In this document: in pieces, positions 4,072-42,223 of the stretch
Layout: every line of letters starts with the position of its first letter
Position numbering within the stretch: position 1 is the first letter of the stretch
Virus record (IMG/VR): IMGVR_UViG_3300033150_000500
Span: 1 to 55,447 of that record
Source: a virus
Lineage: Duplodnaviria; Caudoviricetes
DNA: 55,447 bases
Reading direction: 5' to 3' (one strand)
The notes under the pieces: model-generated
What the model was told of the DNA's origin: nothing
The model's input: the letters and a program-made list of their open reading frames with translations, nothing else
Databases searched by the model: none
Position numbers and translations under genes: made by a program

Positions 4072-4072
4072 T

Positions 4073-6538: not shown

Positions 6539-6542
6539 GTCT

Positions 6543-25227: not shown

Positions 25228-25691
25228 AAGTACCTGCTAAATGCCTTTTCAACCATTGCAAACATTTCATCCTCGACCTTTTTCCATTCATCGTCAGTAA
25301 TATCTAAAATATTTTGACTTTCCTTGTCGCTATGTACATCCACAAGATGACTTCCGTTACTTGCCATCCCACCATCAGAAGAAAGCGTATAGGTAATCTT
25401 TGTCCCTGTTGTTTCTTCGTCTGTCACCTTGTAAGATTTCCACATCTCACCACTAAAGAAAAAATCTTTTAATCCTAACTGTCTTCCAGCTGCCTGTCTT
25501 TTCCTCGCCCAACTCCTACTATAAGGCGTGGAATATTTCTTCTTAACACCCGACCCTGACGACAATGTGCGACTGACGACCGTTGCCGGTATCTTATCCA
25601 TAATCGGTCTTAATAACGGCATTAATACCTCGCCAAAATTAGAAATCTTTAGCAAGTTACTCCTCTGTGTTTGTCCGTGTTGTGTGTACAT
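25224..25691 (-). CDS. Virion morphogenesis/neck protein
   Basis: YSRSWARKR..GRQ..KDFFFSGEMW motif; position. Confidence 0.55.
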   Translation of the reverse strand: MYTQHGQTQRSNLLKISNFGEVLMPLLRPIMDKIPATVVSRTLSSGSGVKKKYSTPYSRSWARKRQAAGRQLGLKDFFFSGEMWKSYKVTDEETTGTKITYTLSSDGGMASNGSHLVDVHSDKESQNILDITDDEWKKVEDEMFAMVEKAFSRYL

Positions 25692-26770: not shown

Positions 26771-27868
26771 TTAACTCCACATTGTATTAGACCCCATAAG
26801 TATTTCACGACCACATTCAAAGCAGTCGGTCTTCTGAACGTCTATATTTTTAACAATAAATTCTATCATTTCATTATATTCACCCATCCACCTTTCGTCC
26901 ATGTCGCCAAGAGTTTCTCCGTCAATCATTGTTTCAAAATTCAGGTTTTCACTCAGGGCAATATCACGCACAAGATTAGAAGCAGCCTTTAATCTGACAG
27001 CTTTCGCCATAGCCATATCTAAGGTGTCACCGATATAGTCCATTTCATCATAACACCATATTTCCTCTACCTTGCACCGCATCTTTAATCCCAACGATAA
27101 ACCAAAACACCTACTGTCAGAAGCCGGATTCAGGTCGCTGAAATCTGCCACATCCGTTAGGGTAACACCGGAAGCCTTTAAATAATCGGTAAAGCCAAAT
27201 TGCTTATTGCTTTGGGTCGCTGCTGGCGGACATAACGAACCACAGGCATCATAAAGTTTGTTGTCATAAGGCGTATTCGCTGCGTAAAGAAAAATAAAAT
27301 AATACTCTAAATTCTCAACATAGTCAGAGTGCATGGGTAAGGTAAGAGCGTCAATCGTATTCCCTTTAACCGCACCGGCAACGGTATTAACAGTATATGT
27401 TCCGTGTAAAGTATTCAGATTGTCGTAAACCAATACGTCAATAGTGCCTGTCGTATCAAACATTGTGGCTATGTCGCTCACCAATATCTCACCCCCCACA
27501 ATATCGTCACACTTCAAAACCAAGCCGTAGTATTTTCCTGCCGTCAAAGACAAGGCACTGTCACGCTTGACCTTCCCAATCCTGCCCTTAAATGGTCTGC
27601 GTTTTAGTTTATTGTATTCGGTAAGAATTGTGGTGGCATCAATACGAAAGTCAATAATAGCGTTGTCGCGGGCTTTCTCCATAAACGTAAATACGTTTTC
27701 CCCAACCTTACAGTTTAAGATTGCCTCAAACTTAGATAAAGGAATTATCTCGTCAAGGAAAAGCCCGCTATCTGAGGTGGTATAATCTGCGGACAAGCCC
27801 GTATAGTCGCTACAAGGCGTTCTGGTTAATCCTATAATATCCGCAAAACACGAAACCGAATCACTCAT
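26771..27868 (-). CDS. Head-tail adaptor-like protein
   Basis: First gene after the capsid; SDSGLFLDE motif; Cys-rich. Confidence 0.55.
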   Translation of the reverse strand: MSDSVSCFADIIGLTRTPCSDYTGLSADYTTSDSGLFLDEIIPLSKFEAILNCKVGENVFTFMEKARDNAIIDFRIDATTILTEYNKLKRRPFKGRIGKVKRDSALSLTAGKYYGLVLKCDDIVGGEILVSDIATMFDTTGTIDVLVYDNLNTLHGTYTVNTVAGAVKGNTIDALTLPMHSDYVENLEYYFIFLYAANTPYDNKLYDACGSLCPPAATQSNKQFGFTDYLKASGVTLTDVADFSDLNPASDSRCFGLSLGLKMRCKVEEIWCYDEMDYIGDTLDMAMAKAVRLKAASNLVRDIALSENLNFETMIDGETLGDMDERWMGEYNEMIEFIVKNIDVQKTDCFECGREILMGSNTMWS

Positions 27869-27884
27869 AATATGTATTTTTCAG

Positions 27885-27892
27885 CAAATATA
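27885..27892 (-). promoter_or_regulatory. Bacteroidota-type -7 element
   Basis: TATATTTG downstream of the capsid terminator. Confidence 0.6.
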
Positions 27893-27922
27893 TATCACTA
27901 ATTCTAAAATAAGTATAACCAT

Positions 27923-27951
27923 AAATAAAAAGCCCCACTTTCGCAGGGCTT
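27923..27951 (-). terminator. Intrinsic terminator after the major capsid gene
   Basis: AAGCCCTGC-GAAA-GTGGGGCTT-TTTATTT. Confidence 0.85.
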
Positions 27952-27996
27952 ACATGAAACAAAACAGCACTTACGATGCTGCACCGTAAATACTTA

Positions 27997-29007
27997 CTAT
28001 GGTGTAGCCCCGCAAACGAAACTTAATAGTCCCGTATTGTTGTCATCACAACCAGTTGGATTCCTGAACAGGTCAGCATTTAGCTTAATCTTGAAGTTAT
28101 GTTGGATTCTGTCGTCAGTCGTACATTCAGTCGTGTAATAAACATCATAACTAAATGGCAAGTAATCTGACTTCATCTGCCAACGTGTGAAAACGTCAGT
28201 CCTGTCAGGATTGATCGGATTCAATGCCCTTGAAGCCATCGCCAATGAACCCATTGAAAGCATATATGTTTTCAGGGTCGGATCATTAACACTGTCAATG
28301 TTGAACAGATCAAAATACATATCCATTCCACCGTACATGATCGCATCTCCTTTGCCGTCTGCGTTGGCGGCATTAGCTTTGGCAACCCACATTTGTTCGT
28401 ATAGGTTGTTGCCACTAAGCATCTTTGGTGTAGTGAACTGATTTAGTATAGCCACCCTTGAAAAGTAGGCAGCAAGTGAAGCGTTCCAGTAGGAGGGTGG
28501 AATATAGGTGTCAGCACCTACAACTGTGCCCTTACCAGCGGTAACGACATTCCAGCCCCGGAAGGCTTCAATTTGAGATACACAATATTGTGCAAAATTC
28601 TCTGTGATATTCTTGTCGGCAGTCAAGAATTGTTTTGCAATAGCACTCTTGATGTCGAACTCGTTATCATCAAAGTCAGCTTCGTCCTCTGAGAAGTTTA
28701 CGACCTTTTCATAAGTAAGGGCATATTCTTTCAGATTCGTAGAGCTTTTAGAACCACCAATGACACAGGTAACATTGTCTTCTACGGTCTGACCGCAGAC
28801 GTTTTGCCAGATAACCTCAACATCGACTACTTTACTTTTAGCCTTTGAGTTATAAACAGTGGCGGTCTGAACCGCCTGAACAGCCTTGATTACATCGTAA
28901 TTAGCTACATACTGTTGTTTAACTCTATCGTCAAATTTGATCTGGGCTGCACGTACTCTAATGTCATTAAGGATGGTTTCATCGAAATAACCAGCAGTTG
29001 TACTCAT
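27997..29007 (-). CDS. Major capsid protein
   Basis: 336 aa after the scaffold, followed by a strong terminator; double stop TAG TAA. Confidence 0.75.
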   Translation of the reverse strand: MSTTAGYFDETILNDIRVRAAQIKFDDRVKQQYVANYDVIKAVQAVQTATVYNSKAKSKVVDVEVIWQNVCGQTVEDNVTCVIGGSKSSTNLKEYALTYEKVVNFSEDEADFDDNEFDIKSAIAKQFLTADKNITENFAQYCVSQIEAFRGWNVVTAGKGTVVGADTYIPPSYWNASLAAYFSRVAILNQFTTPKMLSGNNLYEQMWVAKANAANADGKGDAIMYGGMDMYFDLFNIDSVNDPTLKTYMLSMGSLAMASRALNPINPDRTDVFTRWQMKSDYLPFSYDVYYTTECTTDDRIQHNFKIKLNADLFRNPTGCDDNNTGLLSFVCGATP

Positions 29008-29069
29008 TAAAATAAAAATTTGAAATTAATAGATTCCATCTGCTTTAGAGTGCAGCCATCTCCATCGGA

Positions 29070-29969
29070 TCAATCTTCCGCGTAGGTATATTTTGAGCCT
29101 ATCTCGACAAGTTTTTCACTGTCGCCACCAGCTTCATTTACCATTTTATTGTAGTCCTTTTTCGATAAAATATTTTTTGTTGGGTCAGGTCCTACTCCGC
29201 CCTGTGTATTCCCGGGTGCTTTCTTTGGATCTTGAACCTTAAAATCAAACAAGCTCTCAGCCTCGCTCTTTACAAAGGCATCAAAAACTATCGGGTTGCC
29301 GTGTCCATCCTCAAGTCGTGAATCACCATCTTTTATTACAATGTTTCCGTCTACAAATTCGTAATCAAAACCCTCGAACCTTGACAAGAACATTTCTGTT
29401 TGCTTTTTAGACCTTGCCGTGTCTTCAGATAGCACCGGATTAAGTTTTAAAAATGCCAGTTCAGCCCTATCTTTTACAAGTGAAACACTCTTGCCCTTCT
29501 CGACACCATTCTTAAAGGTATCAAACTCACCCTTTAATTCCTCAATCTGCACCTTAAAATTGTCGTTCATTTCCTTTTCTAACTTCAAAAACTCAGGGTT
29601 TGTTTTGATCTTTTCAAGTGTAATCTTGTTCCCGCTGTTCATTGATTCGCCAAATTCAGCGATAAGGTCTAATCCCCTCTTATCAGAATCCATACCAAAC
29701 TTATCCCTGACATCTTTCTCAAACTTTTCAAGGACTTCTTTCTTTGCCTTATTGTACCCTTCGTCAAATTTCTTTGTCGGATCACCTTTGGATTCTGCCC
29801 GTATCCGCTTGACTTTTTCTGCATCCATATCTATCAGGACGGTAGAGGCATCATCTTTCAACGCAAGCACATCGTCCTCGCCTTTGTCGTAAAGCAATTC
29901 TGTTAATTCTGTGTCTGTTTTGTTAAAGTATTTTGCAAATACATTTAAGATTAATTGCTGTTCGTTCAT
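29070..29969 (-). CDS. Capsid scaffolding protein
   Basis: Charged helical protein, FDEGYNKAK motif, Gly/Pro linker plus terminal helix. Confidence 0.7.
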   Translation of the reverse strand: MNEQQLILNVFAKYFNKTDTELTELLYDKGEDDVLALKDDASTVLIDMDAEKVKRIRAESKGDPTKKFDEGYNKAKKEVLEKFEKDVRDKFGMDSDKRGLDLIAEFGESMNSGNKITLEKIKTNPEFLKLEKEMNDNFKVQIEELKGEFDTFKNGVEKGKSVSLVKDRAELAFLKLNPVLSEDTARSKKQTEMFLSRFEGFDYEFVDGNIVIKDGDSRLEDGHGNPIVFDAFVKSEAESLFDFKVQDPKKAPGNTQGGVGPDPTKNILSKKDYNKMVNEAGGDSEKLVEIGSKYTYAED

Positions 29970-30253
29970 ATTTCTTCATATTTTTGTTTAAGTTTTTTCA
30001 AACCTGTATTCCAACGGAAATCTATGTTAGCATCACGTAATGCCTGACGGTAAAAGACCAGATCATCAACAGGTTCTTCCGGCTTTTCAAACTCCACAAC
30101 AGAAATTTCCTCAATCTCTATCTTTGTCTGAGTAATCTCGTCAGTGTCGTCAATGATAGTATAGTGCCTGTTGTCACCACGTTTACGCATAGTATCCCAT
30201 TGCTTACGGGTTATGTCATGTAGGTCACCAGTGTTCTTACTTTTTACTTTCAT
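29966..30253 (-). CDS. Small protein with C-terminal HeH/LEM-like motif
   Basis: LRDANIDFRWNTGLKKL; paralog of 30237-30515. Confidence 0.6.
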   Translation of the reverse strand: MKVKSKNTGDLHDITRKQWDTMRKRGDNRHYTIIDDTDEITQTKIEIEEISVVEFEKPEEPVDDLVFYRQALRDANIDFRWNTGLKKLKQKYEEI

Positions 30254-30515
30254 CGTATTTTATTTTAAGTTTTGTCCGTCCTGTTTTTGGATGAAATTTT
30301 ATACCCTTTGCTGTCAACTCTGCTCTCATCTCATCATCTGTCGGGTACAGGTCTTCGTCTGTTGCAACATCAACAATATCTATTTTTTGGGATTCCACTG
30401 TTGCTGCTTCTGATTTTACTCCAACTTTTACCCATCCATGTTTTTCTGGATTTCCTAAATCCCAAGCCCGTTGAGAGAAATTCCCCTCAAGGTTGCCTTT
30501 CATTGCTTTAATCAT
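30237..30515 (-). CDS. Small protein with C-terminal HeH/LEM-like motif
   Basis: LTAKGIKFHPKTGRTKL. Confidence 0.6.
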   Translation of the reverse strand: MIKAMKGNLEGNFSQRAWDLGNPEKHGWVKVGVKSEAATVESQKIDIVDVATDEDLYPTDDEMRAELTAKGIKFHPKTGRTKLKIKYDESKK

Positions 30516-30535
30516 AATTTAAGTATTTAAGTTCG

Positions 30536-30543
30536 CAAATATA
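30536..30543 (-). promoter_or_regulatory. Bacteroidota-type -7 element for the scaffold/capsid genes
   Basis: TATATTTG in an intergenic gap. Confidence 0.65.
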
Positions 30544-30555
30544 GTAAATAAATTG

Positions 30556-30804
30556 TTATTTGTCAAGTTTTCGGAAAACTTTAAATTCTTTGTGCATAAT
30601 ATACCACTTCAGTATTGCATGATCCATAGGGTAATTATCCTCACATAAATTGTAATCTTCCATAAACAACTCTACGCACCTTTTCAGTGTTACCGTAGGC
30701 ATCCCACGTTTCATGCCGATTACAAATGAAAACATCAAAAGGTCTAATGCTTCATACATTATCAGCTTTGGAACATCAATGTAATACTTTTTTTTCTTTG
30801 GCAT
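30556..30804 (-). CDS. Hypothetical protein
   Basis: ORF in operon context. Confidence 0.65.
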   Translation of the reverse strand: MPKKKKYYIDVPKLIMYEALDLLMFSFVIGMKRGMPTVTLKRCVELFMEDYNLCEDNYPMDHAILKWYIMHKEFKVFRKLDK

Positions 30805-31477
30805 CCCACATTCTTTTTACTTCATTAATATATTTCTTTCTCTGCTTTGATGTCAGCCTTGCTCGTTCTTTGTTGGTTAAAGAGTTTAATGTTTTGCTTC
30901 CAAAATCCAAATGCTTTACAAAAGCAGAACACACTAAAGCGTGTTTAATTCCACCGATTTTCAATTGTTCGGCATAGATGTTATCTGAATACCAAAAATC
31001 AACTGCGGTGTTAAACCCACCAAGTTTCTTAAACATTTTCCTTTCCACCCCTATACACCAGCCGGGAATATTCACCCCAACCTGATAGCCAACCTGTATA
31101 AAGTTCCCGTCCTTGAAATGTCGCGGGTGACTTACAGGACAGTAGGGACTAAGTGATTTATAACCCATCCTAAAAACCTTGTAACATTCATCAGCCCACC
31201 CGTCCGTAAACTCGAGATCATTGTTACAGAAAAACACATAATCACTCGTTGAAAGCGAAAACCCCTTGTTCATGGATTCATTGTAATTAAAGTCACCATG
31301 CTGGTAGAAAAATGTTGTCGTATTTTTGAATTTTACATCTATATCAAAACTTTCAAGAACAATTATATTTACTTTAACATTATTCTTTGCCTTCTTTAGA
31401 GATTTTATACAGTCAACTGTTATCTGCTTATGCTTCTTTGTCTTGCTATAAGCAAGAATTATAACGTCAAAGACCAT
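30776..31477 (-). CDS. Glycosyltransferase family 2
   Basis: DVIIL, FNYNESMNKG, YVFFCNND, GGF...FWYSD. Confidence 0.85.
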   Translation of the reverse strand: MVFDVIILAYSKTKKHKQITVDCIKSLKKAKNNVKVNIIVLESFDIDVKFKNTTTFFYQHGDFNYNESMNKGFSLSTSDYVFFCNNDLEFTDGWADECYKVFRMGYKSLSPYCPVSHPRHFKDGNFIQVGYQVGVNIPGWCIGVERKMFKKLGGFNTAVDFWYSDNIYAEQLKIGGIKHALVCSAFVKHLDFGSKTLNSLTNKERARLTSKQRKKYINEVKRMWDAKEKKVLH

Positions 31478-31730
31478 CTGTTTTATATTTTTTAATTAGA
31501 TCGGCAATACGACAAATACTACCCTCTATGTCATAGTAACATTCTTCTTGAACAATTATACCATGCCCATTATTATCCCAAGCAACAAATGTTTCATATT
31601 CTATCATCCCTATGGGTATTAAATCCCCGGTATTATCCGTACCATAATTAGGATAATGTCCATTATCTTTAATAATAATTATATCCAAAACCCCAAGACA
31701 AGTATCAATTTTTATGTTTTTATGTTTCAT
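31467..31730 (-). CDS. Hypothetical protein
   Basis: Overlapping start/stop within the cluster. Confidence 0.6.
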   Translation of the reverse strand: MKHKNIKIDTCLGVLDIIIIKDNGHYPNYGTDNTGDLIPIGMIEYETFVAWDNNGHGIIVQEECYYDIEGSICRIADLIKKYKTDGL

Positions 31731-32281
31731 TGTGTTTCGCTGGTTTTGTGATTAAAGTCATAAAAGTACAAAACTTTATTAATAAAAGCCTGACTTTTTA
31801 TTAACGGTTTTAGCCTTTTGGCATAGTCTGCGTCCTCGCTGAAGTTTATCTTCGGGAATCCAACCTTCAAAGCCAATTCTCTTTTCACGCACATGATATG
31901 ATTCGTAATCCGTTCATAATGATCTTTATGGTCTGAATCACACGTATATCTCGCATCATAGTAAACCCTTTTATACTTACTGCCGTTCACCGAACAATTC
32001 ACGCCAAAATTAATAACATCTGTTCCACTTTCTATTCCTTTTAAAATCAAAGAAACATAGTCGTCTGTTACCTTATCATCATCGTCCACAAATACCACAT
32101 ATTCACCTTGCGCAAGATTTAGAAGATCATTACGCTTTTGACCCACGCTTCGTTGTTTGTTGTCACCCAAATAAAGCACCTCTACGTCTTTTATCGTCTG
32201 TGGAAGCAATTTATCAAGCAACTTTGGTAGAAATGTTTTTGCCCTTGACGGTACTGTACAAATTAAAATACTTAGTTTCAT
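31727..32281 (-). CDS. Glycosyltransferase family 2
   Basis: KLSILICT, GQKRN..L..AQGEYVVFVDDDD, FSED. Confidence 0.9.
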   Translation of the reverse strand: MKLSILICTVPSRAKTFLPKLLDKLLPQTIKDVEVLYLGDNKQRSVGQKRNDLLNLAQGEYVVFVDDDDKVTDDYVSLILKGIESGTDVINFGVNCSVNGSKYKRVYYDARYTCDSDHKDHYERITNHIMCVKRELALKVGFPKINFSEDADYAKRLKPLIKSQAFINKVLYFYDFNHKTSETQ

Positions 32282-32403
32282 TTTACTCTGCTTATATTTT
32301 TACCACCACATCTCGGACACTTACAATTACATCCACATCCTTGATGCGTAAACCTTAACGGCTGCCCGTTTTCCGTACAATGCTTACACTGATAAACCTT
32401 CAT
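32278..32403 (-). CDS. 41-aa Cys-rich zinc-ribbon protein (absent from the ORF track)
   Basis: MKVYQCKHCTENGQPLRFTHQGCGCNCKCPRCGGKNISRVK; ATGA overlap with the GT2. Confidence 0.7.
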   Translation of the reverse strand: MKVYQCKHCTENGQPLRFTHQGCGCNCKCPRCGGKNISRVK

Positions 32404-32977
32404 TGAACTCGTCTATTGAAATCAAGTTTAAGTATGCTTTCCTGTTTTTAGCAAACTCCTCAAACGAAATATTGTCATCATCAAGAGGTGTCTGTTTGCC
32501 ATCCATTATCACGCCACAGCCCTGATCGGTGTCCACCACAAACATTTCCAAGCCTTTTACTGTGCGGAATTTCAACCACGCCCTCCATACCGTTCCGTTC
32601 CAATCTCCGACATGAGGCATCGGGTATTCCTGGTTTTTTTCTTCCTGCGGATTACAGTCGTGAACTACGATAGCACCATCGGGTGATATGCAACACATGG
32701 CATTTGAAATATCTTTTACAACCTGATTTTTTTCGTGTAAGCCGTCCACAAAAACAATGTCAAAAATATCTGTATTTTGAGCAAAGAACTCATCCGATGT
32801 CATTTCGTAGAACTCATTGGAGTTTTCATCTTTATGTTCTGTCGGCTCAGGGTCAACGCCAACCTTAAACTCGCATACTACGTTCTGCAAACACATATCA
32901 TTTTGCGTCCCGATTTCAAGATACTGCTTGTAGCCATATCTTTGTATTAGCTTATTTATTACTTCATAACGCCGCAT
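32384..32977 (-). CDS. Class I SAM-dependent methyltransferase (Methyltransf_24-like)
   Basis: YLEIG, GVDP, TSDEFF, FDIVFVDGLH, IVVHD, WNGTVW. Confidence 0.85.
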   Translation of the reverse strand: MRRYEVINKLIQRYGYKQYLEIGTQNDMCLQNVVCEFKVGVDPEPTEHKDENSNEFYEMTSDEFFAQNTDIFDIVFVDGLHEKNQVVKDISNAMCCISPDGAIVVHDCNPQEEKNQEYPMPHVGDWNGTVWRAWLKFRTVKGLEMFVVDTDQGCGVIMDGKQTPLDDDNISFEEFAKNRKAYLNLISIDEFNEGLSV

Positions 32978-33878
32978 ACCATTCTACTGTTTTATCTAAT
33001 CCATCCGCAAAGTTAGTAAATTCCATTAAGAAATCCTCTTTTATTAATGAGTTGTCTATGTTAAAGTTCCTGACATCACCAAACATCTCATCACCGTAGA
33101 CAAGTCCGCTGTCGTAAGTTCTTTCGTGAACCATTTTTGCAAGCTCATTTATGCTTACCTTTATCCCTGAAGCACAGTTGTAAATCCTGTTATCCATCTT
33201 TTCGCAAGCAACAATGTTGGCATGAACAACATCACCGACATAAGTAAATGAGCGTACCTGCTCACCGTCACCATGAATAAGTATAGGCTCCCCACTAACA
33301 ACTTTGCGTAAGAATATAGGTATTACGCCACCATGATCAGAGCTGTCTTGTTTTTCACCGTAAACATGGAAGTACCTCAATATTGTGTACTCAATTCCAT
33401 GTAAGTCGCCAAAGGCAGCCACGTACTTTTCCCCTGCCATCTTGCTTACCCCGTAATAACTGACAGGATTAAGCGGTGTAAATTCCGTTATCATCCCACC
33501 AACCTCTCCATATACAGACCCGGTAGAAGCGTGTACAATCTTATTTACTCCATTGTCAACCATAGACAGTAAGACGTTCAATGTGCCTCCTGCATTGATT
33601 TCACAGTCTTCAACAGGACTTCTCTCACAGACGGTCTTTTTGGCTGCCATCTGGTTAAAAACAACGTCAACGCCTTTCATGGAGAAATCTAATACCTTGC
33701 GATCTCTCACGTCACCATGAATAAATTTAAACTTTTTATTTTTTCTCAGGTGTGAAATGTTTATCGTCTTCCCTGTCGAAAGATTATCATAACAGATAAC
33801 CTTATCACCTCTTTCTAAAAGTGCTTCGCATAGGTGTGAACCTATAAATCCCGCACCGCCCGTTACCAATGCTTTCAT
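32964..33878 (-). CDS. NAD-dependent nucleotide-sugar epimerase (extended SDR)
   Basis: GGAGFIGS, ASTGSVYG, YGVSK, GDGEQVRSFTYVGD. Confidence 0.93.
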   Translation of the reverse strand: MKALVTGGAGFIGSHLCEALLERGDKVICYDNLSTGKTINISHLRKNKKFKFIHGDVRDRKVLDFSMKGVDVVFNQMAAKKTVCERSPVEDCEINAGGTLNVLLSMVDNGVNKIVHASTGSVYGEVGGMITEFTPLNPVSYYGVSKMAGEKYVAAFGDLHGIEYTILRYFHVYGEKQDSSDHGGVIPIFLRKVVSGEPILIHGDGEQVRSFTYVGDVVHANIVACEKMDNRIYNCASGIKVSINELAKMVHERTYDSGLVYGDEMFGDVRNFNIDNSLIKEDFLMEFTNFADGLDKTVEWYAAL

Positions 33879-34054
33879 AGCTTTTTAAATTTATAATTCA
33901 AAACATTCTTAATAGAATCTGACATTTCTTTCGTGTTTAACATCAATGCCCCGCCAAGGGTTATAAACATATCCCAACATTCATTATCTGTAATTGTTGG
34001 CAATACACTATTAACTTCTTTCTTGAATTTATCATATTGCTCACTTGCTTTCAT
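33875..34054 (-). CDS. 59-aa hypothetical protein (absent from the ORF track)
   Basis: MKASEQYDKF...YKFKKL; ATGA overlaps at both ends. Confidence 0.65.
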   Translation of the reverse strand: MKASEQYDKFKKEVNSVLPTITDNECWDMFITLGGALMLNTKEMSDSIKNVLNYKFKKL

Positions 34055-34551
34055 AAATAATTATTATATAGTTCATATATATACTCGTTATTTTTCTTAA
34101 ATATTTTTATCGCCTCTCGATTTGGGATATGTTTATGTTTGGACACATTTATCTTTTGTGGCTCAATGTATTCTTTACCCAAATAGTCAGTAAGTTTTTT
34201 AATGTCTTCGTCATACCTTTCATATATACCAACAAATTCCACACCATCTAACGGCGGCAAAAACCTAAGCATAGTAGACGGCTCACTCTTGAAATATTCA
34301 TCAACATCTGGCATATCCTTGTATTGTTTGGTATAATTATAATACGACAACTGTTGCTGATATGGCTCTCTTAAAAATAAAATATAATCCATGTTGTCAA
34401 GATAATAATGACCGTAAGCTATTTCATACCCGTCAGTATTATATGCTAAAGCATTATTATAAACAGTAAGCATTTTATCACCATACCACTCACGAAAAAC
34501 ATACCGCAGTGATGTCCCACCAGTTCGTGGGATATGGACAAACATTTTCAC
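34051..34551 (-). CDS. Sulfotransferase family 2-like protein
   Basis: FVHIPRTGGTS 5'-PSB loop, FLREP...SYY 3'-PB motif, FVGIYE. Confidence 0.8.
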   Translation of the reverse strand: MKMFVHIPRTGGTSLRYVFREWYGDKMLTVYNNALAYNTDGYEIAYGHYYLDNMDYILFLREPYQQQLSYYNYTKQYKDMPDVDEYFKSEPSTMLRFLPPLDGVEFVGIYERYDEDIKKLTDYLGKEYIEPQKINVSKHKHIPNREAIKIFKKNNEYIYELYNNYL

Positions 34552-34856
34552 AATACCACTATTTTTGGATATACTTTTTCTTTATCAGTCATGCCATACA
34601 ATAATATATGTACCCGGTCACCAATTTTGAAATGATTGGCAGCAGCACCGTTCAGGCAAACCTCTCCGCCCTCACCCGAAATAACATACGTTTCCCAATG
34701 ATTTCCCGTATCTATACAATTAACGTGAACCATATCGTACTCTTTAAAGTCAACTAATGCCATCAAATCTCGTCCTAACGTAATACTGCCATCATAATCA
34801 AGGTTCGCACCTGTTACAGTTGTTGTTAATTTAGCAATTAATTTTTGTACATACAT
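34548..34856 (-). CDS. panD: Pyruvoyl-dependent decarboxylase, aspartate 1-decarboxylase family (divergent)
   Basis: K9, ANLDYDG/SIT self-cleavage site, ETYVI, CLNGAAA, GDRVHI. Confidence 0.9.
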   Translation of the reverse strand: MYVQKLIAKLTTTVTGANLDYDGSITLGRDLMALVDFKEYDMVHVNCIDTGNHWETYVISGEGGEVCLNGAAANHFKIGDRVHILLYGMTDKEKVYPKIVVL

Positions 34857-35563
34857 TTTAGCATCTCCTTAAATTTTTCAGCAATTAATAATAATTCCTC
34901 TTTTGGTCTGCCATATAATATATTATATGAAGCAGTTTCGTTTACATCAATAATATATAATTTCCCATCGTCATCACGCATAATGTCAAGATCAGCAAAG
35001 TCAATCCCAAATAATCCACAAAATGTAAGTATATCTTGGCTTTCTAATGACGTAAACGGACTTACCACCTCGCAACCATCATAATAACCAACTATGCCTT
35101 TAGGGAAATGTAGTAATCTTGGTACTGTGCGTTCCCAGCAAATCACAATCTCACCACCAATAATCGTACACCTGTATTCTTTTGTTGGCGTACCACCAAG
35201 AACCCTTTGGTAAATAAAACCCTCCTCGTTGTCTGGCTTATCTAATATTCCAGATAATTCCTTATTGGCATGATGAATTGACTTTTTCACACACCGCCCA
35301 CTTTTGACAATGGAAGAATATTTAAAAACAATCTCAAACGCCCCGTCTATTGATTTTTTGTCGGTAGAACAAATTGTGTTGTTTATTACTGGTATATCTG
35401 ACTTAAAATCCACCACATTCCCATAACTATTTTTAAAATCGAAATATATCACATAATCATACTCGTCATTTATATCATTCGTCTGCTTAATGCCAAGAAC
35501 ATTTAATATGGCATCAAGTTTATGATAAAACGCCCTGTCTGGATATACGAGTATTGTTTTCAT
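34838..35563 (-). CDS. ATP-grasp ligase-like protein
   Basis: DK, VKKS, IYQR, EYR, GIDFADLDIMRD..GKLYIIDVN. Confidence 0.75.
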   Translation of the reverse strand: MKTILVYPDRAFYHKLDAILNVLGIKQTNDINDEYDYVIYFDFKNSYGNVVDFKSDIPVINNTICSTDKKSIDGAFEIVFKYSSIVKSGRCVKKSIHHANKELSGILDKPDNEEGFIYQRVLGGTPTKEYRCTIIGGEIVICWERTVPRLLHFPKGIVGYYDGCEVVSPFTSLESQDILTFCGLFGIDFADLDIMRDDDGKLYIIDVNETASYNILYGRPKEELLLIAEKFKEMLKCMYKN

Positions 35564-36273
35564 GCTTTGTCGTTTGTTCCATGTTTATAAACCGAAAATA
35601 TATCACCTTGTAATAAATCCCAATATGGCGTTGCGAAATTATGAACCGTTAAACTTTCCGTGGGTGCTTTTATTGTTCGACCCAAAGAAATCTCAACCCT
35701 TATATTGTCCAGCTTCCACCTAACGTAATCAAAACTGAGTTGGTCACGGTAGCTACCGGTCATCACTTGATGCCACCATTCACGCTCAAAATCTTCCATA
35801 GTTACATTATTATGCCTGCCAATAATCCCACAAGCATTTAGTCCGTAATTTTCAGGGAAACCCTCTGCACGATACCTCGCCATCTGCGGGATAAAATTTA
35901 ACGAATTGTCAATGCCCTCTTTTTCTATTATTTTTGCCTCCTCGTAAATACAAGTCCTACAAGGGTGCTTCATCATATTGAAATCTTTTCCGTAGTCGAT
36001 ATCTAATTTATTCAAGTCACCGTCAACGTGAATCTGCCCGCCAATCATAAGCGAATAATCGTATTCTTTGGGAACAAATAAATGCGAGTTAATGTAAACG
36101 TATCGTGCCGCTAAATAATCCGGCAACGGAGTTGTGACCACCCTAATATCCCAAACATTACTTTTAATGTCAGTTCTGTTGGTAAACATCAAATAGTCCC
36201 ACCCTTCACTTTTGAACGGCTCATGCGGCTTATCGTGGTCACCAAAATGTATTGTATAAAGACACTTTTTCAT
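35560..36273 (-). CDS. DUF616 (TOD1/MUCI70-like) glycosyltransferase
   Basis: YT..FGD.D, FTN, HPCRTCIYEEA, SYRDQLSF. Confidence 0.8.
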   Translation of the reverse strand: MKKCLYTIHFGDHDKPHEPFKSEGWDYLMFTNRTDIKSNVWDIRVVTTPLPDYLAARYVYINSHLFVPKEYDYSLMIGGQIHVDGDLNKLDIDYGKDFNMMKHPCRTCIYEEAKIIEKEGIDNSLNFIPQMARYRAEGFPENYGLNACGIIGRHNNVTMEDFEREWWHQVMTGSYRDQLSFDYVRWKLDNIRVEISLGRTIKAPTESLTVHNFATPYWDLLQGDIFSVYKHGTNDKA

Positions 36274-36537
36274 TTAACTTTTCTTCTTTTTCTTTTCTTT
36301 AATAACATTCCATTTCCCACTTTTGCAATCCAATCGAATCTCTATTTTTAATGCGTCTAACATTAAATGAATACAGCTCTCAAGATTCAGGTATGGTATT
36401 AACTTAAATTTAGACCTGCCATCCGTCCACCCCTCCATACGTCCACCAGTATGATTTAAACACGCTTTTTCAAGGTATTCTATCCTTGACAATAATTCCT
36501 CATTCCTAATACGGCTTCTTTTCTTAAATATCTTCAT
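36274..36537 (-). CDS. Hypothetical protein
   Basis: ORF in operon context. Confidence 0.6.
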   Translation of the reverse strand: MKIFKKRSRIRNEELLSRIEYLEKACLNHTGGRMEGWTDGRSKFKLIPYLNLESCIHLMLDALKIEIRLDCKSGKWNVIKEKKKKKS

Positions 36538-36574
36538 AATTATAATCCATTTAAATGTTTATAAATACACCTTT

Positions 36575-36880
36575 TCATTTACCTGTTTTTTCGTAATATT
36601 CCAAATCATCAACATCACAAATAGAACGAGTGGGGCATCCACCATAAGTCAGAAACAACACCCCTTCTTTAAATCTCACAGATCGTGAACCCTTTTCAAA
36701 CATCTGTTCTCCTGCGTATGCCGGATTTGTCCATGCTTTCTTCCACCCCAAATCCAAAAGCTCTTGTGTGGTAAACGCATGAAATAATTTACCTAATTGC
36801 ACCATATATTCTTCGTCTATTGCATCTTTCTTTTGAGCAATTTCCTGCTTTAGCACAATTATCTTTTCCCTGTTTTTCAT
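36575..36880 (-). CDS. Hypothetical protein
   Basis: ORF in operon context. Confidence 0.65.
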   Translation of the reverse strand: MKNREKIIVLKQEIAQKKDAIDEEYMVQLGKLFHAFTTQELLDLGWKKAWTNPAYAGEQMFEKGSRSVRFKEGVLFLTYGGCPTRSICDVDDLEYYEKTGK

Positions 36881-37155
36881 AACGTCTTTAAATGTTTATA
36901 AAGTTCATGCCAGCCGTCTATCTTGACTTTGCATAATTCAATCCTGGATTCAATCAGATTCTTTCGTGCATCACCGTGAGCAATCTTGTATTTGTCACCG
37001 CCTATATGTTCTACGTGGCAGTCCATAACCAAAAGATTCAACAATGAAGCAGCATCTTTTTTTCCCTGACCTACAAAGTGCATAAACTCCTTGAACGTGA
37101 AATTTCGCCCAAGAGTTAGCTTTCGTATGTCGTATGCTATGTCTTTAAGTGCCAT
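36877..37155 (-). CDS. Hypothetical protein, possible winged helix
   Basis: FTFKEF...LLNLLV..HVEHIGGDKY. Confidence 0.55.
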   Translation of the reverse strand: MALKDIAYDIRKLTLGRNFTFKEFMHFVGQGKKDAASLLNLLVMDCHVEHIGGDKYKIAHGDARKNLIESRIELCKVKIDGWHELYKHLKTL

Positions 37156-37156
37156 A

Positions 37157-37411
37157 TTAACACAAATTATCTACGTATTTTTTTATTTCATCAATCGTAG
37201 CCCCCTTATCAATCATATCACCAATATCTGATTTTATAGTATTGTAATAAAAATCTGCTTGTGCTGAATCTATTTCAGAATAAATGATATTAACATCGTA
37301 ATCAGTATAACTCATTCTGCTATTCGTGGCATAACATAGAACACAACTATAATCATATTGCAACCTATCGTAATCTAATGCTTTGCGAAAAAATCTTATT
37401 ATTCTTTTCAT
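37157..37411 (-). CDS. Hypothetical protein
   Basis: ORF in operon context. Confidence 0.6.
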   Translation of the reverse strand: MKRIIRFFRKALDYDRLQYDYSCVLCYATNSRMSYTDYDVNIIYSEIDSAQADFYYNTIKSDIGDMIDKGATIDEIKKYVDNLC

Positions 37412-37412
37412 C

Positions 37413-38051
37413 TTAGTGGTCTAATAATCCCGGAACATGGCAAACTCCAAATCCTGCCGTGTTCAAGCGTTTATAATTATCACTTATTACCTTTAATGTA
37501 TTTACAAAATTCCAATCATGTAAATATGTTGTTTTCTCATTCCACCACGCATTCATATCTACCTTATGACAAATATTTGATGTCCCACATTGACCCTGCG
37601 TATGTATCGAACAAACATGGCGGTCAAACTGCTCTGTCTTTTTATTCCAACTCATATCATCGAACCAATACCAATCACAGTCGGTCATCTCTATTTGTAA
37701 TGATTCCAAATAACCATCAAGGTACAAATCATCAACGTCCAAATAAATAGCATATTCGCCTTTTGCCTTCTGAAGCCCTGCGTTTCTCGCCCTGCCTGAA
37801 GAGCCAGCGTTACGCTTTGAGCCTCGCACCTTTTTGTATTGAATCTTAAAGAGATTAATGTTCTTATTCCCGTAAAAGTTGTTCCTGATTATCTCTATGG
37901 TTTTATCACAGCCATCAGCTACAATTATCAACTCAAAATCTTTTTGGGTTAAAACAGAATTAACAGCCCTGACAATCTTTTCGTCACGGTTGCTTGCTGC
38001 TCGTTTGTACTCGCCCAAGAATGAGGGCATTATGACTGAGAATTTAGGCAT
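37413..38051 (-). CDS. Glycosyltransferase family 2
   Basis: FSVIMPS, ELIIVADG, ARNAGL..AKGEYAIYLDVDD, HDW. Confidence 0.9.
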   Translation of the reverse strand: MPKFSVIMPSFLGEYKRAASNRDEKIVRAVNSVLTQKDFELIIVADGCDKTIEIIRNNFYGNKNINLFKIQYKKVRGSKRNAGSSGRARNAGLQKAKGEYAIYLDVDDLYLDGYLESLQIEMTDCDWYWFDDMSWNKKTEQFDRHVCSIHTQGQCGTSNICHKVDMNAWWNEKTTYLHDWNFVNTLKVISDNYKRLNTAGFGVCHVPGLLDH

Positions 38052-38204
38052 TATGTAAGCTCCCTCTTAAATATTGCGTATGGTGGCGAATCAACTGTTT
38101 CAATACATTCCCATCCGGCCTTTCCATGTTTATTTAAAAACCGAATCCAATCGCTGTGGTCACTGCCATACTTATTCCCCTCATCAAATTTAAAAATTTC
38201 ATAC

Positions 38205-38480
38205 TCAAATTTCTTCATTTATTTCTTTATCTAAGTTTGCTTTAGCTGTGTGAAAAATCTTACCCGTGTATTTGTAGGTTTTAAAATAATATTCACTAAC
38301 CCAAAAATATTTATTCTTTTTACGGATTACCATTGACGTTATCCCCGTGCTTTCTGTGAACTCGTCAGCACCCTTTTTGGCTAATTCCAACGTCCCGTCT
38401 TCGACAACCATATTACTACGCTTGCCTAATAAGGATCGCATTGCCTTAATCTGTTCTAACTGCTGTTTTGTTACTGTCAT
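38205..38480 (-). CDS. Hypothetical protein
   Basis: C-terminal half resembles 38662-38829. Confidence 0.65.
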   Translation of the reverse strand: MTVTKQQLEQIKAMRSLLGKRSNMVVEDGTLELAKKGADEFTESTGITSMVIRKKNKYFWVSEYYFKTYKYTGKIFHTAKANLDKEINEEI

Positions 38481-38674
38481 ACTATTGTTTTTTCATCTGA
38501 AAGCTCATGTTCAAAACACTATTCTCCGTTTTCGTAGCTCGTTGAAACGAAATATTCGACACCGCTTAGCGTCCCAAATTTCATATTAATAATAATACCC
38601 TTCCGGCTTTCAGGAGTGATGTGATAAACTTCCTGCAACATTTCAAATTTGTGTTCAAATGTTATTTTTCCCAT
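38477..38674 (-). pseudogene. 65-codon gene interrupted by an in-frame TAG at 38519-38521
   Basis: MGKITFEHKF...SYENGE*CFEHELSDEKTIV; the read-through TGA overlaps the next ATG. Confidence 0.55.
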
Positions 38675-38829
38675 GATGTACTAAATATTATATTTCCTTT
38701 TCCGTGATAGCTTCCAAAATAGTCGTGGCAAAACCACTCAAATGTTCCATCCAAAAATAGCACATGAGCGTATTGCCCGACTTCTGCCGTGTATTTTATT
38801 GCTTTATTTATTGCTTTACTTTTCTCCAT
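38662..38829 (-). CDS. 55-aa hypothetical protein (absent from the ORF track)
   Basis: MEKSKAINKAIKYTAEVG...FEWFCHDYFGSYHGKGNIIFSTSWEK. Confidence 0.6.
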   Translation of the reverse strand: MEKSKAINKAIKYTAEVGQYAHVLFLDGTFEWFCHDYFGSYHGKGNIIFSTSWEK

Positions 38830-39407
38830 TGTGAACCTCCTGCAAATTTTCTTCTACCATTGCAACACGCAGAAATATTAGAATGATGAATCTCTGTTTT
38901 TCTTGCCGCACTATTAATTGAATAATATTTTGCAATATCAACATTACCAATAAATTGAATAATTGAAATACATTGTTTTGTATTAATTCCATTCAATGAA
39001 TCTGACATATATCGTTGATTATTCTCTCTCCACGTAACAACCCTTAAATTATCAAGTGTATAGGGCTTATAATCATCAAGCCTGTCGCACGATGGTCTTA
39101 ATCTTGTATTATATCCAGATTCTTTCCAATTATCATATAACTCATGGAATACACGCTGAGAAAACATCCATTCTCGTAATTCACCAAGCGTATATGTTGG
39201 CATTGGGTCGCCACGCTTTCTTGATGTTGCTCTTTGCGTTGAATATATAGTAGATATTAAACCATCTTTTGTTTTTTGGTATTCTTGAATAGCAATATTT
39301 TTACAGTCATTACACCAAGAACATTTCCCATCTTTTGTTTCTGGATGTCTATTAAACCGATTAATTGGTTTCGGCTCACCACACTTTGTACAAATCTTAG
39401 TTTCCAT
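38808..39407 (-). CDS. Free-standing HNH-like homing endonuclease with NUMOD1
   Basis: Same architecture as 8979-9578 (RPSCDRLDDYKPYTLDNL..TW.EN); start placed at METKIC. Confidence 0.75.
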   Translation of the reverse strand: METKICTKCGEPKPINRFNRHPETKDGKCSWCNDCKNIAIQEYQKTKDGLISTIYSTQRATSRKRGDPMPTYTLGELREWMFSQRVFHELYDNWKESGYNTRLRPSCDRLDDYKPYTLDNLRVVTWRENNQRYMSDSLNGINTKQCISIIQFIGNVDIAKYYSINSAARKTEIHHSNISACCNGRRKFAGGSQWRKVKQ

Positions 39408-39408
39408 A

Positions 39409-40200
39409 TTATTTCTTTTTAAGCTCTTCCTTTGCTCGTTCATCTGTTATGAATAATGGATAATGCCTACAACCCCACCTGCCTCTGTCTATTAGTGGGT
39501 TATAGTCATCGACATTGGGGTATCCGGGAAGCGTTGAATCGTTTTTCCAATCATCAATATTGTCTTTATTAAAAACAAGATCGTTACGCTTTATACAAAA
39601 CTCACGGCTTGTTGAAATAAGCCCGCCAGCATAAATAAAATATTTAAGACCATTTTGTTCTGCGTGTGCAGAAGATAAAATTGCATCGAACTGCATAACG
39701 CTGTCGTATAGGAAGTTACGATAATATCTATTCAGGACGCCACTGCGGTCTTTTAAGCCCAATATATCCCTCATACCCAAACGTATCGTTCCCATGCTCC
39801 TATGCGAAGAAATACTACCAAGTAAATAATTCTTTACCTGTTGCTTTACGGGTTCTAAAACAGACACGCTTTGCAGGTAGTTTTCCATCCTTGTCATTAG
39901 CGCATCAAACCCTTTAAAACTTTTAGCATCTAAACCCAAAGAATCGAAATAATCCACATAGAATTTATCCAGCCCTCTCAAATGTGTAGTTATTCTTTTT
40001 AGAAATGGTAATTGTGAATTTTTGTTGAAGGTGATAAAGGCATTGTCGATTTTACCCACAAGTGAAATGTTCTTTGAATTAAACACAGCCTTTCCGTCTA
40101 CGAAAAGCAACCCAACAATTACAGCCATGATCTCGTCATACAAGTCACGTTCAAGCTGTTCTGTTTCTTTTTCAACCTTATTTACAAACTCATCAATCAT
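39409..40200 (-). CDS. Minor head morphogenesis protein (SPP1 gp7/Mu F-like)
   Basis: YFIYAGG..SREFC and RGRWGCRH motifs; after the portal. Confidence 0.75.
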   Translation of the reverse strand: MIDEFVNKVEKETEQLERDLYDEIMAVIVGLLFVDGKAVFNSKNISLVGKIDNAFITFNKNSQLPFLKRITTHLRGLDKFYVDYFDSLGLDAKSFKGFDALMTRMENYLQSVSVLEPVKQQVKNYLLGSISSHRSMGTIRLGMRDILGLKDRSGVLNRYYRNFLYDSVMQFDAILSSAHAEQNGLKYFIYAGGLISTSREFCIKRNDLVFNKDNIDDWKNDSTLPGYPNVDDYNPLIDRGRWGCRHYPLFITDERAKEELKKK

Positions 40201-40202
40201 TC

Positions 40203-40376
40203 TTAATATATTGCAACAATTTCATCACACGCAATAATTAACATTGTAATACCAGAACCCTTATCAAACAAACGTATAAATTCTGGCGTTTCGCCGCCCA
40301 TAAGCTGCTTAGATATAGCATCTGCATTTTCAACAGAAACATTAATTTCTTTTTTGTTTTTAAATAAAATTTTCAT
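40203..40376 (-). CDS. 57-aa hypothetical protein (absent from the ORF track)
   Basis: MKILFKNKKEINVS...DEIVAIY; fills the gap. Confidence 0.6.
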   Translation of the reverse strand: MKILFKNKKEINVSVENADAISKQLMGGETPEFIRLFDKGSGITMLIIACDEIVAIY

Positions 40377-40387
40377 AGTTTTAGTTT

Positions 40388-42223
40388 TTAGTCAACAATT
40401 TCTTTTATTTCAGGCATCGGTTCTTCTTTACGCTCTTTAATTACGGCATTGACACGCTTTTCGATTACCGTCCACTGTTTTGAGCGTGCAAGCTCGTAAA
40501 AGCTAACATTCTTTTTAGTGTAATCAATTTCAATTTCATTAAATATCCACCCGTAGATTTCCCACAACACCCTGCTAAAATTAGTATTAGGAACGGTGGA
40601 TAAAATCATGGCAATCTGCTCCTGTGTTTTCCCACTGTAAGGATAAAATGCCTCTTTTGTCTTGTACCGCCTGTAACCTATCGGGTCGTCAGTATAAATA
40701 ATCCTTGCGATGTCATCTTGAATGCCTTGCTTGATAAACGGGTCTGCTTTGGAATCTGCCACCATCTTTAAATCGTTATACAGGTCATTTAAACTTTTCA
40801 TCTTAAAGTCACGGCTGAATATGTACGAGTAGACAAGTTTTTTGTCCATGTCCGTAATATTTGAGATGGTCATTATCGAAAACCCCCACATATAAGAATA
40901 TGCCATAGCCATCGGGTACAAGGCGTCATATACGTTCTGAAGGTCAATATTTTTACCTGTTGCTGTTTCTGCGATCTGCTGGCGGGAAAAAATCTCAGAA
41001 TTATAAATAGCTTCTTTACACTGTGCCGTCAAGCTCTTAATATACTCGTCCTGGAATTTGATTAAATCAACAGGCGGATATTTGTAAGTAATAATATTAT
41101 CCAGGCTCACGAGGTCTTCCTTATCTCTTGGCATTGAAAGCTCTATTACTTCCTGTGCAGAGGTAGATGTCTTCTGTAAGCCAGTACCACTACACTCACC
41201 ACACAGGCTGTTGTCAGGCAACCGCCCCTTATTACAGTTTGCGGCCTTACACTCACCAATATATTGTACTTTCTGCGGAAACGCAGTAAGGCACATAGTA
41301 AGGTCTAACTCGGAGTTAGCCTTAATGGTTTTCATTAATATCGGTATGGCTTCATCAATAGGAGAAATACAAGTCCGCCCCCTTGTTACAATGTCGTACT
41401 CAAAACCAACCCTTGCGGCAGGGACAAAGTCCAGTTCTGATTTCAGGATGTTAATGCGGTAAATTTTATTTTTAATTTCAATATATTTAGCACCTTTTAT
41501 GTATTCATCTGAAATACCTTGAAGTTCGTCTGCGTCTTCCTGACTTAACTGGTCAAAGACAATGGCGTATGACGGATAGTACATTGTATATCTTTTCAGC
41601 ACAGTTTTACCCTCGTTGTCTTCCTGTACCCTCTCAGGAATCCCACCCGCACCTTTCTCAAACTCATTTAACACAACAAGGAATTGCAATATGTTATTGT
41701 CAAACTGATAATAAATAGCCTCGTGTGCGCTAACCTCAAACGGGTATGGTTTTGCCCGTTCTTTCGTGTTATCAAACTCACCCCACTCATAAACAATAAA
41801 AGAATTAGGGTCTGTGTAGGTAAGCTCAATCCATCTCTTATTCAGGTATTGATCCATTGACTTGTCGCCCCAAAACTTATCTAAAATCCCATCAAGTTTG
41901 TGCAGCTTTTTGTTTTCGTTGTCGTCTTCGTACATCAGCACCCTCTGGACGCCGTTGCTTCGTGGTATCTTGTAGGCCGGCTTCATAAGGTTTTTAGAAA
42001 CCGTCTTTGTGATGTGCATGGTAATGTCCTCACGCTGTTTAAACTGTTTCACACTTTCTCTTTGGTCAAACCTTCGCATCAACGGAGCCATGTCTTCTCC
42101 GGTTATCAGCCTTGTCAGATTTTTGGCGTATTCTGTTACCCTGTCATAATCACGGTGTCTTTTTTCGCCACCAATGATGTCGATTAAAAGCGAAATAGCT
42201 TTATCATTTGTTAATTTCCTCAT
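40388..42223 (-). CDS. Portal protein with an internal Zn-finger insertion
   Basis: 611 aa after the terminase genes; DPNS, ETATG motifs; CKAANC...CGECSGTG. Confidence 0.8.
   Translation of the reverse strand: MRKLTNDKAISLLIDIIGGEKRHRDYDRVTEYAKNLTRLITGEDMAPLMRRFDQRESVKQFKQREDITMHITKTVSKNLMKPAYKIPRSNGVQRVLMYEDDNENKKLHKLDGILDKFWGDKSMDQYLNKRWIELTYTDPNSFIVYEWGEFDNTKERAKPYPFEVSAHEAIYYQFDNNILQFLVVLNEFEKGAGGIPERVQEDNEGKTVLKRYTMYYPSYAIVFDQLSQEDADELQGISDEYIKGAKYIEIKNKIYRINILKSELDFVPAARVGFEYDIVTRGRTCISPIDEAIPILMKTIKANSELDLTMCLTAFPQKVQYIGECKAANCNKGRLPDNSLCGECSGTGLQKTSTSAQEVIELSMPRDKEDLVSLDNIITYKYPPVDLIKFQDEYIKSLTAQCKEAIYNSEIFSRQQIAETATGKNIDLQNVYDALYPMAMAYSYMWGFSIMTISNITDMDKKLVYSYIFSRDFKMKSLNDLYNDLKMVADSKADPFIKQGIQDDIARIIYTDDPIGYRRYKTKEAFYPYSGKTQEQIAMILSTVPNTNFSRVLWEIYGWIFNEIEIDYTKKNVSFYELARSKQWTVIEKRVNAVIKERKEEPMPEIKEIVD

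Follow-up and report, generated by a model that had tools for sequence, protein, structure and literature searches.

The aspartate decarboxylases of the PanD family (PF02261, TIGR00223) have a common fold, a Gly-Ser self-cleavage site and the residues Thr57, Tyr58, Lys9 and Asn72-Gly-Ala-Ala, and all of these features are found in a 102-residue protein encoded by the IMG/VR virus record IMGVR_UViG_3300033150_000500 (Duplodnaviria; Caudoviricetes), in which its gene overlaps that of a 241-residue ATP-grasp ligase. The complete record of 55,447 bp was analysed and is referred to below as the window. Among the described enzymes of altered substrate, CrpG, the beta-methylaspartate alpha-decarboxylase of cryptophycin synthesis, is presumably a PanD homologue. 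In passages of PMC6471175, CrpG is mentioned together with aspartate decarboxylase (ADC), an enzyme of narrow substrate range; as proposed here for the window protein, CrpG is a self-processing pyruvoyl enzyme with an altered substrate in a secondary pathway, but its substrate is an aspartate derivative with a side-chain carboxylate. For ADC itself, passages of PMC3314653 present Arg54 as a strictly conserved residue responsible for substrate specificity, and count His11 and Asn112 among the strictly conserved residues as well. In passages of PMC3975893, Arg54 contacts the beta-carboxylate of isoasparagine, and both papers describe Arg54 of a neighbouring subunit as binding the side-chain carboxylate of the substrate. 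Unlike PanD, the window protein has His in place of Arg54 and Trp at position 55, lacks the His11 position through a deletion, and has no Asn112.

For the ligase, the closest described systems are RimK, LysX and ArgX, which are its best structural and profile matches and with which it shares conserved nucleotide- and Mg-binding positions. However, these enzymes add amino acids to the C-terminal glutamate of a protein, their sequence identity to the window ligase is 12-16%, and the window ligase is shorter. A second comparison is offered by the TupA-like protein Cj1438 of Campylobacter jejuni, whose amines are said to come from pyridoxal phosphate (PLP) enzymes and not from a pyruvoyl enzyme. 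According to passages of PMC11800379, this protein has a C-terminal ATP-grasp domain by which glucuronate of the capsule is amidated at its C6 carboxylate. Here, too, an ATP-grasp enzyme of a glycan cluster converts the carboxylate of a sugar into an amide, which is the pathway logic proposed for the window, but Cj1438 belongs to a different ATP-grasp family: at E <=0.01, a set of 88 relatives of the window ligase matched seven families, and none of the seven is TupA-like.

Taken together, our analyses give about even chances to the reading that a working pyruvoyl decarboxylase supplies a small amine, which a co-translated ligase attaches as an amide in a glycan pathway encoded by the phage. 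ATP-grasp enzymes form amides via acyl-phosphates. From the families and folds of the two proteins, their retained catalytic residues and the overlap of their genes, we infer activity, functional coupling, an amide product and a glycan context. In a first step, the decarboxylase would produce a small primary amine from an amino acid; this amine could be beta-alanine if the His still accepts aspartate, or another one if the specificity has shifted. The ligase would then spend ATP to make an acyl-phosphate and join the amine to a carboxylate through an amide bond, and this amide would decorate a sugar or glycan assembled by four glycosyltransferases, a nucleoside diphosphate (NDP)-sugar epimerase and a methyltransferase. 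Judged from the substituted residues, a changed substrate of the decarboxylase stands at roughly even odds. A more specific proposal, in which the PanD proteins with the His-Trp pair represent a new specificity class, yielding an amine other than beta-alanine or decarboxylating an attached amino acid, for an ATP-grasp-made amide on a phage-built glycan that is possibly part of the virion, is a tentative one and rather doubtful.

The assignment of the 102-residue protein is well founded in its residues. Its open reading frame (ORF) has a good ribosome-binding site, AAGGAG, 8 nt ahead of the ATG, and residues 1-101 match PF02261 (Asp_decarbox) with 90.7 bits against a cut-off of 25; canonical bacterial PanDs score 157-174 bits on the Pfam model, compared to 90.6 for the window protein. 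On TIGR00223, the NCBIfam equivalog model of panD, the protein reaches 74.7 bits and remains below the cut-off of 106. Its best solved relative is 3oug (E 2.1e-13). In the alignment to M. tuberculosis PanD (2c45), G23-S24 corresponds to Gly24-Ser25, T56-Y57 to Thr57-Tyr58 and H53 to Arg54, with His-Trp standing where PanD has Arg54-Phe/Leu55, and K9 and N69-G-A-A-A are retained. This alignment and that of the relatives confirmed what a sequence-only reading had claimed, namely that Lys9, the Gly-Ser site, the Thr-Tyr pair and the NGAAA motif are kept while Arg54 is replaced by His. The loss of His11 by a one-residue deletion, noted in the same reading, was confirmed in the window protein and is shared by its five closest relatives only; K-I-H is retained deeper in the clade, and the deletion is not clade-defining. 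The protein stops at residue 102, without a C-terminal tail, while most relatives have 110-140 residues. Across the clade, down to 52% identity, K9, Y21, G23-S24, T56-Y57, N69-G-A-A-A and I84 show little or no variation, and this conservation argues for a working enzyme. The 102-residue protein is therefore most likely, as far as its sequence can tell, a self-processing pyruvoyl-dependent amino-acid alpha-decarboxylase of the PanD fold.

The replacement of the specificity residue is not peculiar to the window. The relatives examined numbered 124 (the top 120 matches of a profile search, together with three members of clusters and a match found earlier), and 36 of them carry His-Trp at this position, while all of the remaining 88 carry Arg followed by Phe, Leu or Ile. 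The His-Trp proteins fall into a short group of 20, which includes the window protein and shows T-G-x-H-W-E-T-Y together with NGAAAxHF (one member has Ser-Trp), and a longer group of 16 with H-W-E-T-Y and N-G-x-P-A. In a quick maximum-likelihood tree, only two label changes are needed for the three groups; 87 of the 88 Arg rows lie behind one branch (SH-aLRT, the Shimodaira-Hasegawa-like approximate likelihood ratio test, 95), and a second branch (96) sets off the long His-Trp group. The His-Trp pair is, on the alignment and the tree, the signature of what appears to be a distinct PanD subfamily. Among 95 non-self PanD loci from IMG/VR and metagenomes, 83 are of the Arg type and 12 of the His-Trp type, and a pattern search added eight further His-Trp homologues from IMG/VR, one of them on a contig already counted and two nearly identical to each other. 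A single near-identical sibling contig of the short form was found in IMG/VR, and a metagenome scan returned no close relative of this form. Two samples of 401 genomes each were without the His-Trp pattern; one was drawn from the phylum to which a Bacteroidales metagenome-assembled genome belongs, the other from that of a Hirschia genome.

The proteins of the longer group, 116-135 residues in length, are encoded on phage contigs, the longest of 281 kb, as well as on bacterial-looking contigs, and are labelled aspartate 1-decarboxylase in their sources. The loci come from IMG/VR (L004, L007/L182, L011, L184, L186-L189 and L192) and from metagenomes (L020, L021, L034, L035, L040, L062, L067, L096 and L098). 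Bacterial-type genes adjoin the His-Trp gene in L040 (a histidine kinase, DapF and a tetratricopeptide repeat protein) and in L062 (a penicillin amidase and a hybrid kinase), indicating that the subfamily is not purely viral. On L182, a viral contig of 281,566 bp, a 547-residue protein with a Hint (intein-like) module, encoded at 5758-7401(-), lies directly upstream of the His-Trp PanD, and a collagen-triple-helix-repeat protein, encoded at 3944-4975(-), two genes downstream. In three loci, a conserved ORF of 500-540 residues converges on the bacterial-type His-Trp PanD (L040:10350-11957(-), L034:6771-8396(-) and L021:6650-8158(-)); the L040 and L034 copies had no Pfam match, and the L040 copy had no match in the PDB. 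In all, PDB searches with two conserved neighbours of His-Trp genes outside the window returned no match.

The flanks of these genes provide the clearest separation of the two types. With panB and panC queries taken from a fetched locus and verified with Pfam (E 1.7e-118 and 6.4e-111), panB/panC were found in the flanks of 54 of the 80 non-redundant Arg-type loci, as against 0/18 His-Trp loci (Fisher p 5e-8), the latter including mutual close relatives and hence representing fewer than 18 independent observations. Restricted to loci of 6 kb or more, the comparison gave 20/31 and 0/12, respectively (p 1e-4). Since His-Trp loci do not adjoin panB/panC and the majority of Arg-type loci do, the His-Trp subfamily appears to have left the pantothenate pathway, and the flank counts are the strongest evidence for this. 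Five Arg-type IMG/VR loci (L008, L009, L010, L014 and L017) have adjoining panB and panC, and may be host fragments. A search of the complete record for panB and panC gave no match, which bears out the earlier statement that neither gene is present. The accompanying claim that the protein is not an ordinary PanD of the pantothenate pathway also holds, given the score below the TIGR00223 cut-off, the replaced specificity Arg and the flank counts.

These counts bear directly on the rival explanation that survives best, in which the His-Trp protein is an ordinary auxiliary metabolic gene product, still an aspartate 1-decarboxylase, which raises beta-alanine for pantothenate and coenzyme A, and merely happens to be encoded next to the ATP-grasp ligase. 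Where one enzyme limits the rate, its gene alone can act as an auxiliary gene, in the absence of panB and panC. The catalytic and processing residues are retained, Arg-type PanD genes are carried by viral contigs and by named phages (e.g., Achromobacter phage 2-1 and Gordonia phage Jace), and the His-Trp genes on clearly bacterial contigs, next to DapF, histidine kinases or penicillin amidase, look like genes of cellular metabolism. Nevertheless, we consider this explanation unlikely: panB/panC are missing beside the His-Trp loci, the score lies under the panD equivalog cut-off, every His-Trp member is without the specificity Arg, and the gene has a 19-nt translational overlap with the ligase gene inside a glycan block.

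The 241-residue neighbour was recognized through its relatives and its predicted structure. Single-sequence searches of Pfam, NCBIfam, PHROGs, the PDB and, by tblastn, 50,697 phage records returned nothing useful, while an exhaustive search found at least 575 relatives at E <=0.001. A fold from only five sequences had a predicted local distance difference test (pLDDT) score of 44.5; the AlphaFold model used here was built from an alignment of 88 relatives and reached a pLDDT of 90.3. All Foldseek matches listed from the PDB were ATP-grasp proteins, with template modelling (TM) scores of 0.56-0.65; ArgX was the best (E 1.4e-9), and the others listed were MdnC, PsnB, LysX/ArgX, RimK, Ddl, an inositol-phosphate kinase domain, synapsin and PruB. 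The atlas is in agreement with an ATP-grasp fold. The profile of the family matches RimK (E 3.9e-4), with its D-x-N aligned to E-V-N of RimK, and nine of the 88 relatives match Pfam ATP-grasp models at E <=0.01 (RimK 5, YheCD 3 and Ins134_P3_kin 1). Across the 88, K94 and D206 are invariant, and D193, N208, R131 and Y118-Q119 are conserved in at least 90%; we take K94 to be the ATP-binding Lys and the acidic and Asn positions to bind Mg. Judged from the model, which shows the three-domain ATP-grasp fold, the ORF encodes a true ATP-grasp protein whose family has not been curated, in line with the sequence-only reading, which had called it an ATP-grasp ligase.

Several further observations were made on this family. 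The best match of the model in BFVD is A0A5B8IEU7, an uncharacterised protein of Mimiviridae sp. ChoanoV1 (E 1.3e-13, TM 0.80), which exceeds the match to any solved structure. In species genomes of GTDB, tblastn confirmed the family at 560 places or more, spread over many phyla. In many loci of Caulobacterales and Hyphomonadaceae, a gene for a protein of about 300 residues directly follows that of the ligase, and the metallo-beta-lactamase (MBL)-fold proteins encoded beside ligase-family genes, 13 in number, bear a winged-helix domain. Among bacterial relatives there are fusions in which the ligase follows a Wzx-like Polysacc_synt domain, as in 5 of the 10 relatives scanned, all five being among the eight of at least 403 residues.

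The coupling of the two genes was also proposed earlier, and it is well supported within the window itself: the ligase ORF overlaps the PanD-like ORF by 19 nt and lies inside a block of glycan-building genes. In addition, the ligase ORF overlaps the upstream glycosyltransferase-like gene by 4 nt (ATGA), and the gene downstream of the PanD-like ORF overlaps the latter by 4 nt (GTGA). Outside the window, a decarboxylase of 77% identity and a ligase of 56% identity were each found on a contig of 2562 bp, and the members of a second decarboxylase/ligase pair were each found on a contig of 1251 bp. The pairing of decarboxylase and ligase is particular to the short group.

Several observations nevertheless weigh against a functional link of this kind. 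The pairing in the two relatives is presumed only from equal contig sizes. The window ATP-grasp family was detected in none of the 95 non-self PanD loci and in none of the eight His-Trp loci found by pattern, homologues of nine other cluster proteins of the window (E <=1e-4) were found in 0/20 other His-Trp loci, and no PanD homologue lay within 10 kb in 79 bacterial loci of the ligase family. An association of the change from Arg to His with ATP-grasp and glycosyltransferase neighbours in phages, which the earlier reading had proposed to test, was therefore not borne out, as neither the ligase family nor homologues of the cluster occur in the 20 other His-Trp loci. The neighbours of the ligase family are mixed as well (n=119, from the bacterial loci L100-L178), with MBL-fold proteins 13, glycosyltransferase family 4 (GT4) 8, family 2 (GT2) 4 and PLP decarboxylases 2. 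Adjacent phage genes are not always functionally linked. A His is able to hydrogen-bond or ion-pair with a carboxylate, so aspartate could still be the substrate. No enzyme forming a uronic acid (UDP-glucose dehydrogenase) was found in the complete phage genome, and passages of PMC3314653 describe the active site of canonical PanD as small, its cleft admitting small molecules only. The uronic acid named earlier as acceptor of the ligase was accordingly a guess, since a UDP-glucose dehydrogenase is missing and the short-chain dehydrogenase/reductase (SDR) of the block is a generic NDP-sugar 4-epimerase/dehydratase. A complex prediction for ligase and decarboxylase scored 0.12 against a mark of 0.32 and speaks neither for nor against a link.

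An alternative order of the two reactions was also considered, in which the ATP-grasp enzyme first attaches an amino acid via its side chain (for example, the beta-carboxyl of aspartate onto an amino sugar) and the PanD-like enzyme then strips the alpha-carboxyl, so that a cationic Arg facing the side chain would no longer be needed. Decarboxylation after conjugation is known in other pyruvoyl enzymes, such as phosphatidylserine decarboxylase. The loss of Arg54 and the gain of the neighbouring Trp fit a neutral, bulkier substituent on the side chain, and the short C-terminus would also be in agreement with it. However, the small cleft described for PanD is against such a substrate, and the His-Trp enzymes of other genomes have no linked ligase of the window family. 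Ligation before decarboxylation thus seems to us quite improbable.

The proposal of an amine supplied to a co-translated ligase also draws on the setting of the two genes. The record represents a complete virus genome with direct terminal repeats, and its minus strand carries all sizeable ORFs (Table 1). The glycan block is located between the terminase and tape-measure genes. Its genes are co-directional from 38051 down to 30776, and most of them overlap or abut, the largest gaps being 37 and 102 nt. Their order is GT2, four small ORFs, TOD1/MUCI70-like glycosyltransferase, ligase, decarboxylase, possible sulfotransferase, 59-residue ORF, SDR, Methyltransf_24, GT2, 87-residue ORF and GT2. The best PDB match of the SDR is the UDP-glucose 4-epimerase 4zrm (E 1.7e-56), followed by WbpP and WbgU. 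The sulfotransferase is tentative: PHROGs provided the sole support, searches of Pfam, NCBIfam and the PDB gave no match, and motifs like the loop that binds 3'-phosphoadenosine 5'-phosphosulfate were read by eye. A scan of 29500-39500 for promoters and terminators gave counts at the level of shuffled sequence (43 vs 38 +/- 5.9 and 7 vs 4.8 +/- 2.4, respectively).

Table 1. Genes of the glycan block and other features of the 55,447-bp window
Feature	Position	Strand	Support
GT2 glycosyltransferase, upstream end of block	37413-38051	-	PF00535 E 6.2e-14; phrog_22739 GtrB-like E 5.5e-10
Four small ORFs, 84-101 aa, between first GT2 and DUF616-like glycosyltransferase	36274-37411	-	
TOD1/MUCI70 (DUF616)-like glycosyltransferase	35560-36273	-	PF04765 E 2.3e-7; phrog_26101 glycosyltransferase E 3.8e-21
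Compact ATP-grasp ligase, predicted, family without Pfam model, 241 aa	34838-35563	-	Model, Foldseek, profile
Putative PanD-fold pyruvoyl-type amino-acid decarboxylase, His-Trp subfamily, short form, 102 aa	34548-34856	-	PF02261 E 7.5e-26
Possible sulfotransferase (tentative), 166 aa	34051-34551	-	phrog_3347 galactose-3-O-sulfotransferase E 1e-4
59-aa ORF	33875-34054	-	Within co-directional block; 4-nt overlap with both neighbours
NAD-dependent NDP-sugar 4-epimerase/dehydratase (SDR)	32964-33878	-	PF01370 E 2.1e-59
Class I S-adenosylmethionine methyltransferase (Methyltransf_24)	32384-32977	-	PF13578 E 3.7e-8
GT2 glycosyltransferase	31727-32281	-	PF00535 E 8.8e-9; phrog_8858 E 6.4e-51
GT2 glycosyltransferase	30776-31477	-	PF00535 E 1.8e-5; phrog_22332 E 1.2e-25
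Terminase large subunit	42570-43880		phrog_3717 E 8.8e-65
Tape-measure protein	20992-24297		
Presumed portal/head/capsid ORFs	25691-29969; 39409-42223	-	Two weak or function-unknown PHROG matches
Endonuclease VII/HNH-like paralogue	38808-39443	-	phrog_1035 E 1e-23
Endonuclease VII/HNH-like paralogue	8979-9578	-	phrog_1035 E 9e-15
Endonuclease VII/HNH-like paralogue	54762-55427	-	phrog_1035 E 7e-27

Elsewhere in the genome, an early region encodes a primase/helicase, a replication initiator and DNA methyltransferases. Because Pfam and PHROG searches assigned no named family to the ORFs presumed to encode portal, head and capsid proteins, the label of a structural module is owed to the terminase and tape-measure genes only, and the structural proteins of this phage are, from these matches, apparently very divergent. 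The three endonuclease VII/HNH-like paralogues are scattered over the genome and look like homing endonucleases; one copy separates the head genes from the glycan block. Flavobacterium phages have the nearest named terminases (about 30% identity), and the nearest relatives of the DUF616-like glycosyltransferase are Cellulophaga phage genes, from which a Bacteroidota host may be guessed, but no more than guessed. A tyrosine integrase was not found in the phage genome (serine recombinases were not searched for), and a role of the block in lysogenic conversion appears for this reason unlikely.

The genes surrounding His-Trp enzymes in other phages raise the question of whether the block could instead place sugars and an amino-acid-derived amine on the bases of the phage DNA. 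Known thymidine hypermodification pathways decarboxylate appended amino acids, and a Pfam scan of a sample of phage His-Trp loci revealed UvrD-like and SNF2 helicases, a 5'-3' exonuclease, ThyX and a PP-loop ATPase-like protein in the neighbourhood. However, the complete phage genome gave no match to PF00303, PF12851 or PF00145, that is, to a thymidylate-synthase-like hydroxymethylase, a TET/JBP dioxygenase or a C5 DNA methylase. Moreover, the block has the terminase gene on one side and the tape-measure gene on the other, and its GT2 enzymes, SDR epimerase and methyltransferase are typical of glycan synthesis; in the literature, nothing relevant was found on pyruvoyl enzymes in phage DNA hypermodification. 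DNA hypermodification is thus a very remote explanation. Weaker still, and hardly tenable, is a PanD-fold protein that has lost catalysis or has a structural role only, for which the loss of three strictly conserved residues (Arg54, His11 and Asn112) could be cited, but which is at odds with the invariance of the cleavage site and of the Thr57, Tyr58, Lys9 and Asn72 equivalents in the 20 short-form members.

The novelty of this locus is that a PanD-fold subfamily without the arginine and an uncurated ATP-grasp family are joined in a phage glycan block; a search of the literature, covering texts without their supplementary files, uncovered no earlier account of this combination or of PanD in a glycan cluster. 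PanD has been treated as an enzyme of one substrate and is annotated everywhere as aspartate 1-decarboxylase, and a coherent arginine-swapped subfamily in phages and uncultured bacteria constitutes a testable case for a new pyruvoyl decarboxylase activity, the more so as the enzyme, with just 102 residues, is small and directly testable. Its partner belongs to a ligase family without a Pfam model, some of whose numerous members are fused to polysaccharide flippase-like domains, and one biochemical study could assign a function to two unannotated families and reveal how an amide-decorated glycan is built by a phage. If a changed specificity is true, the His-Trp proteins would provide the first example of a PanD fold acting on something other than aspartate or methylaspartate.

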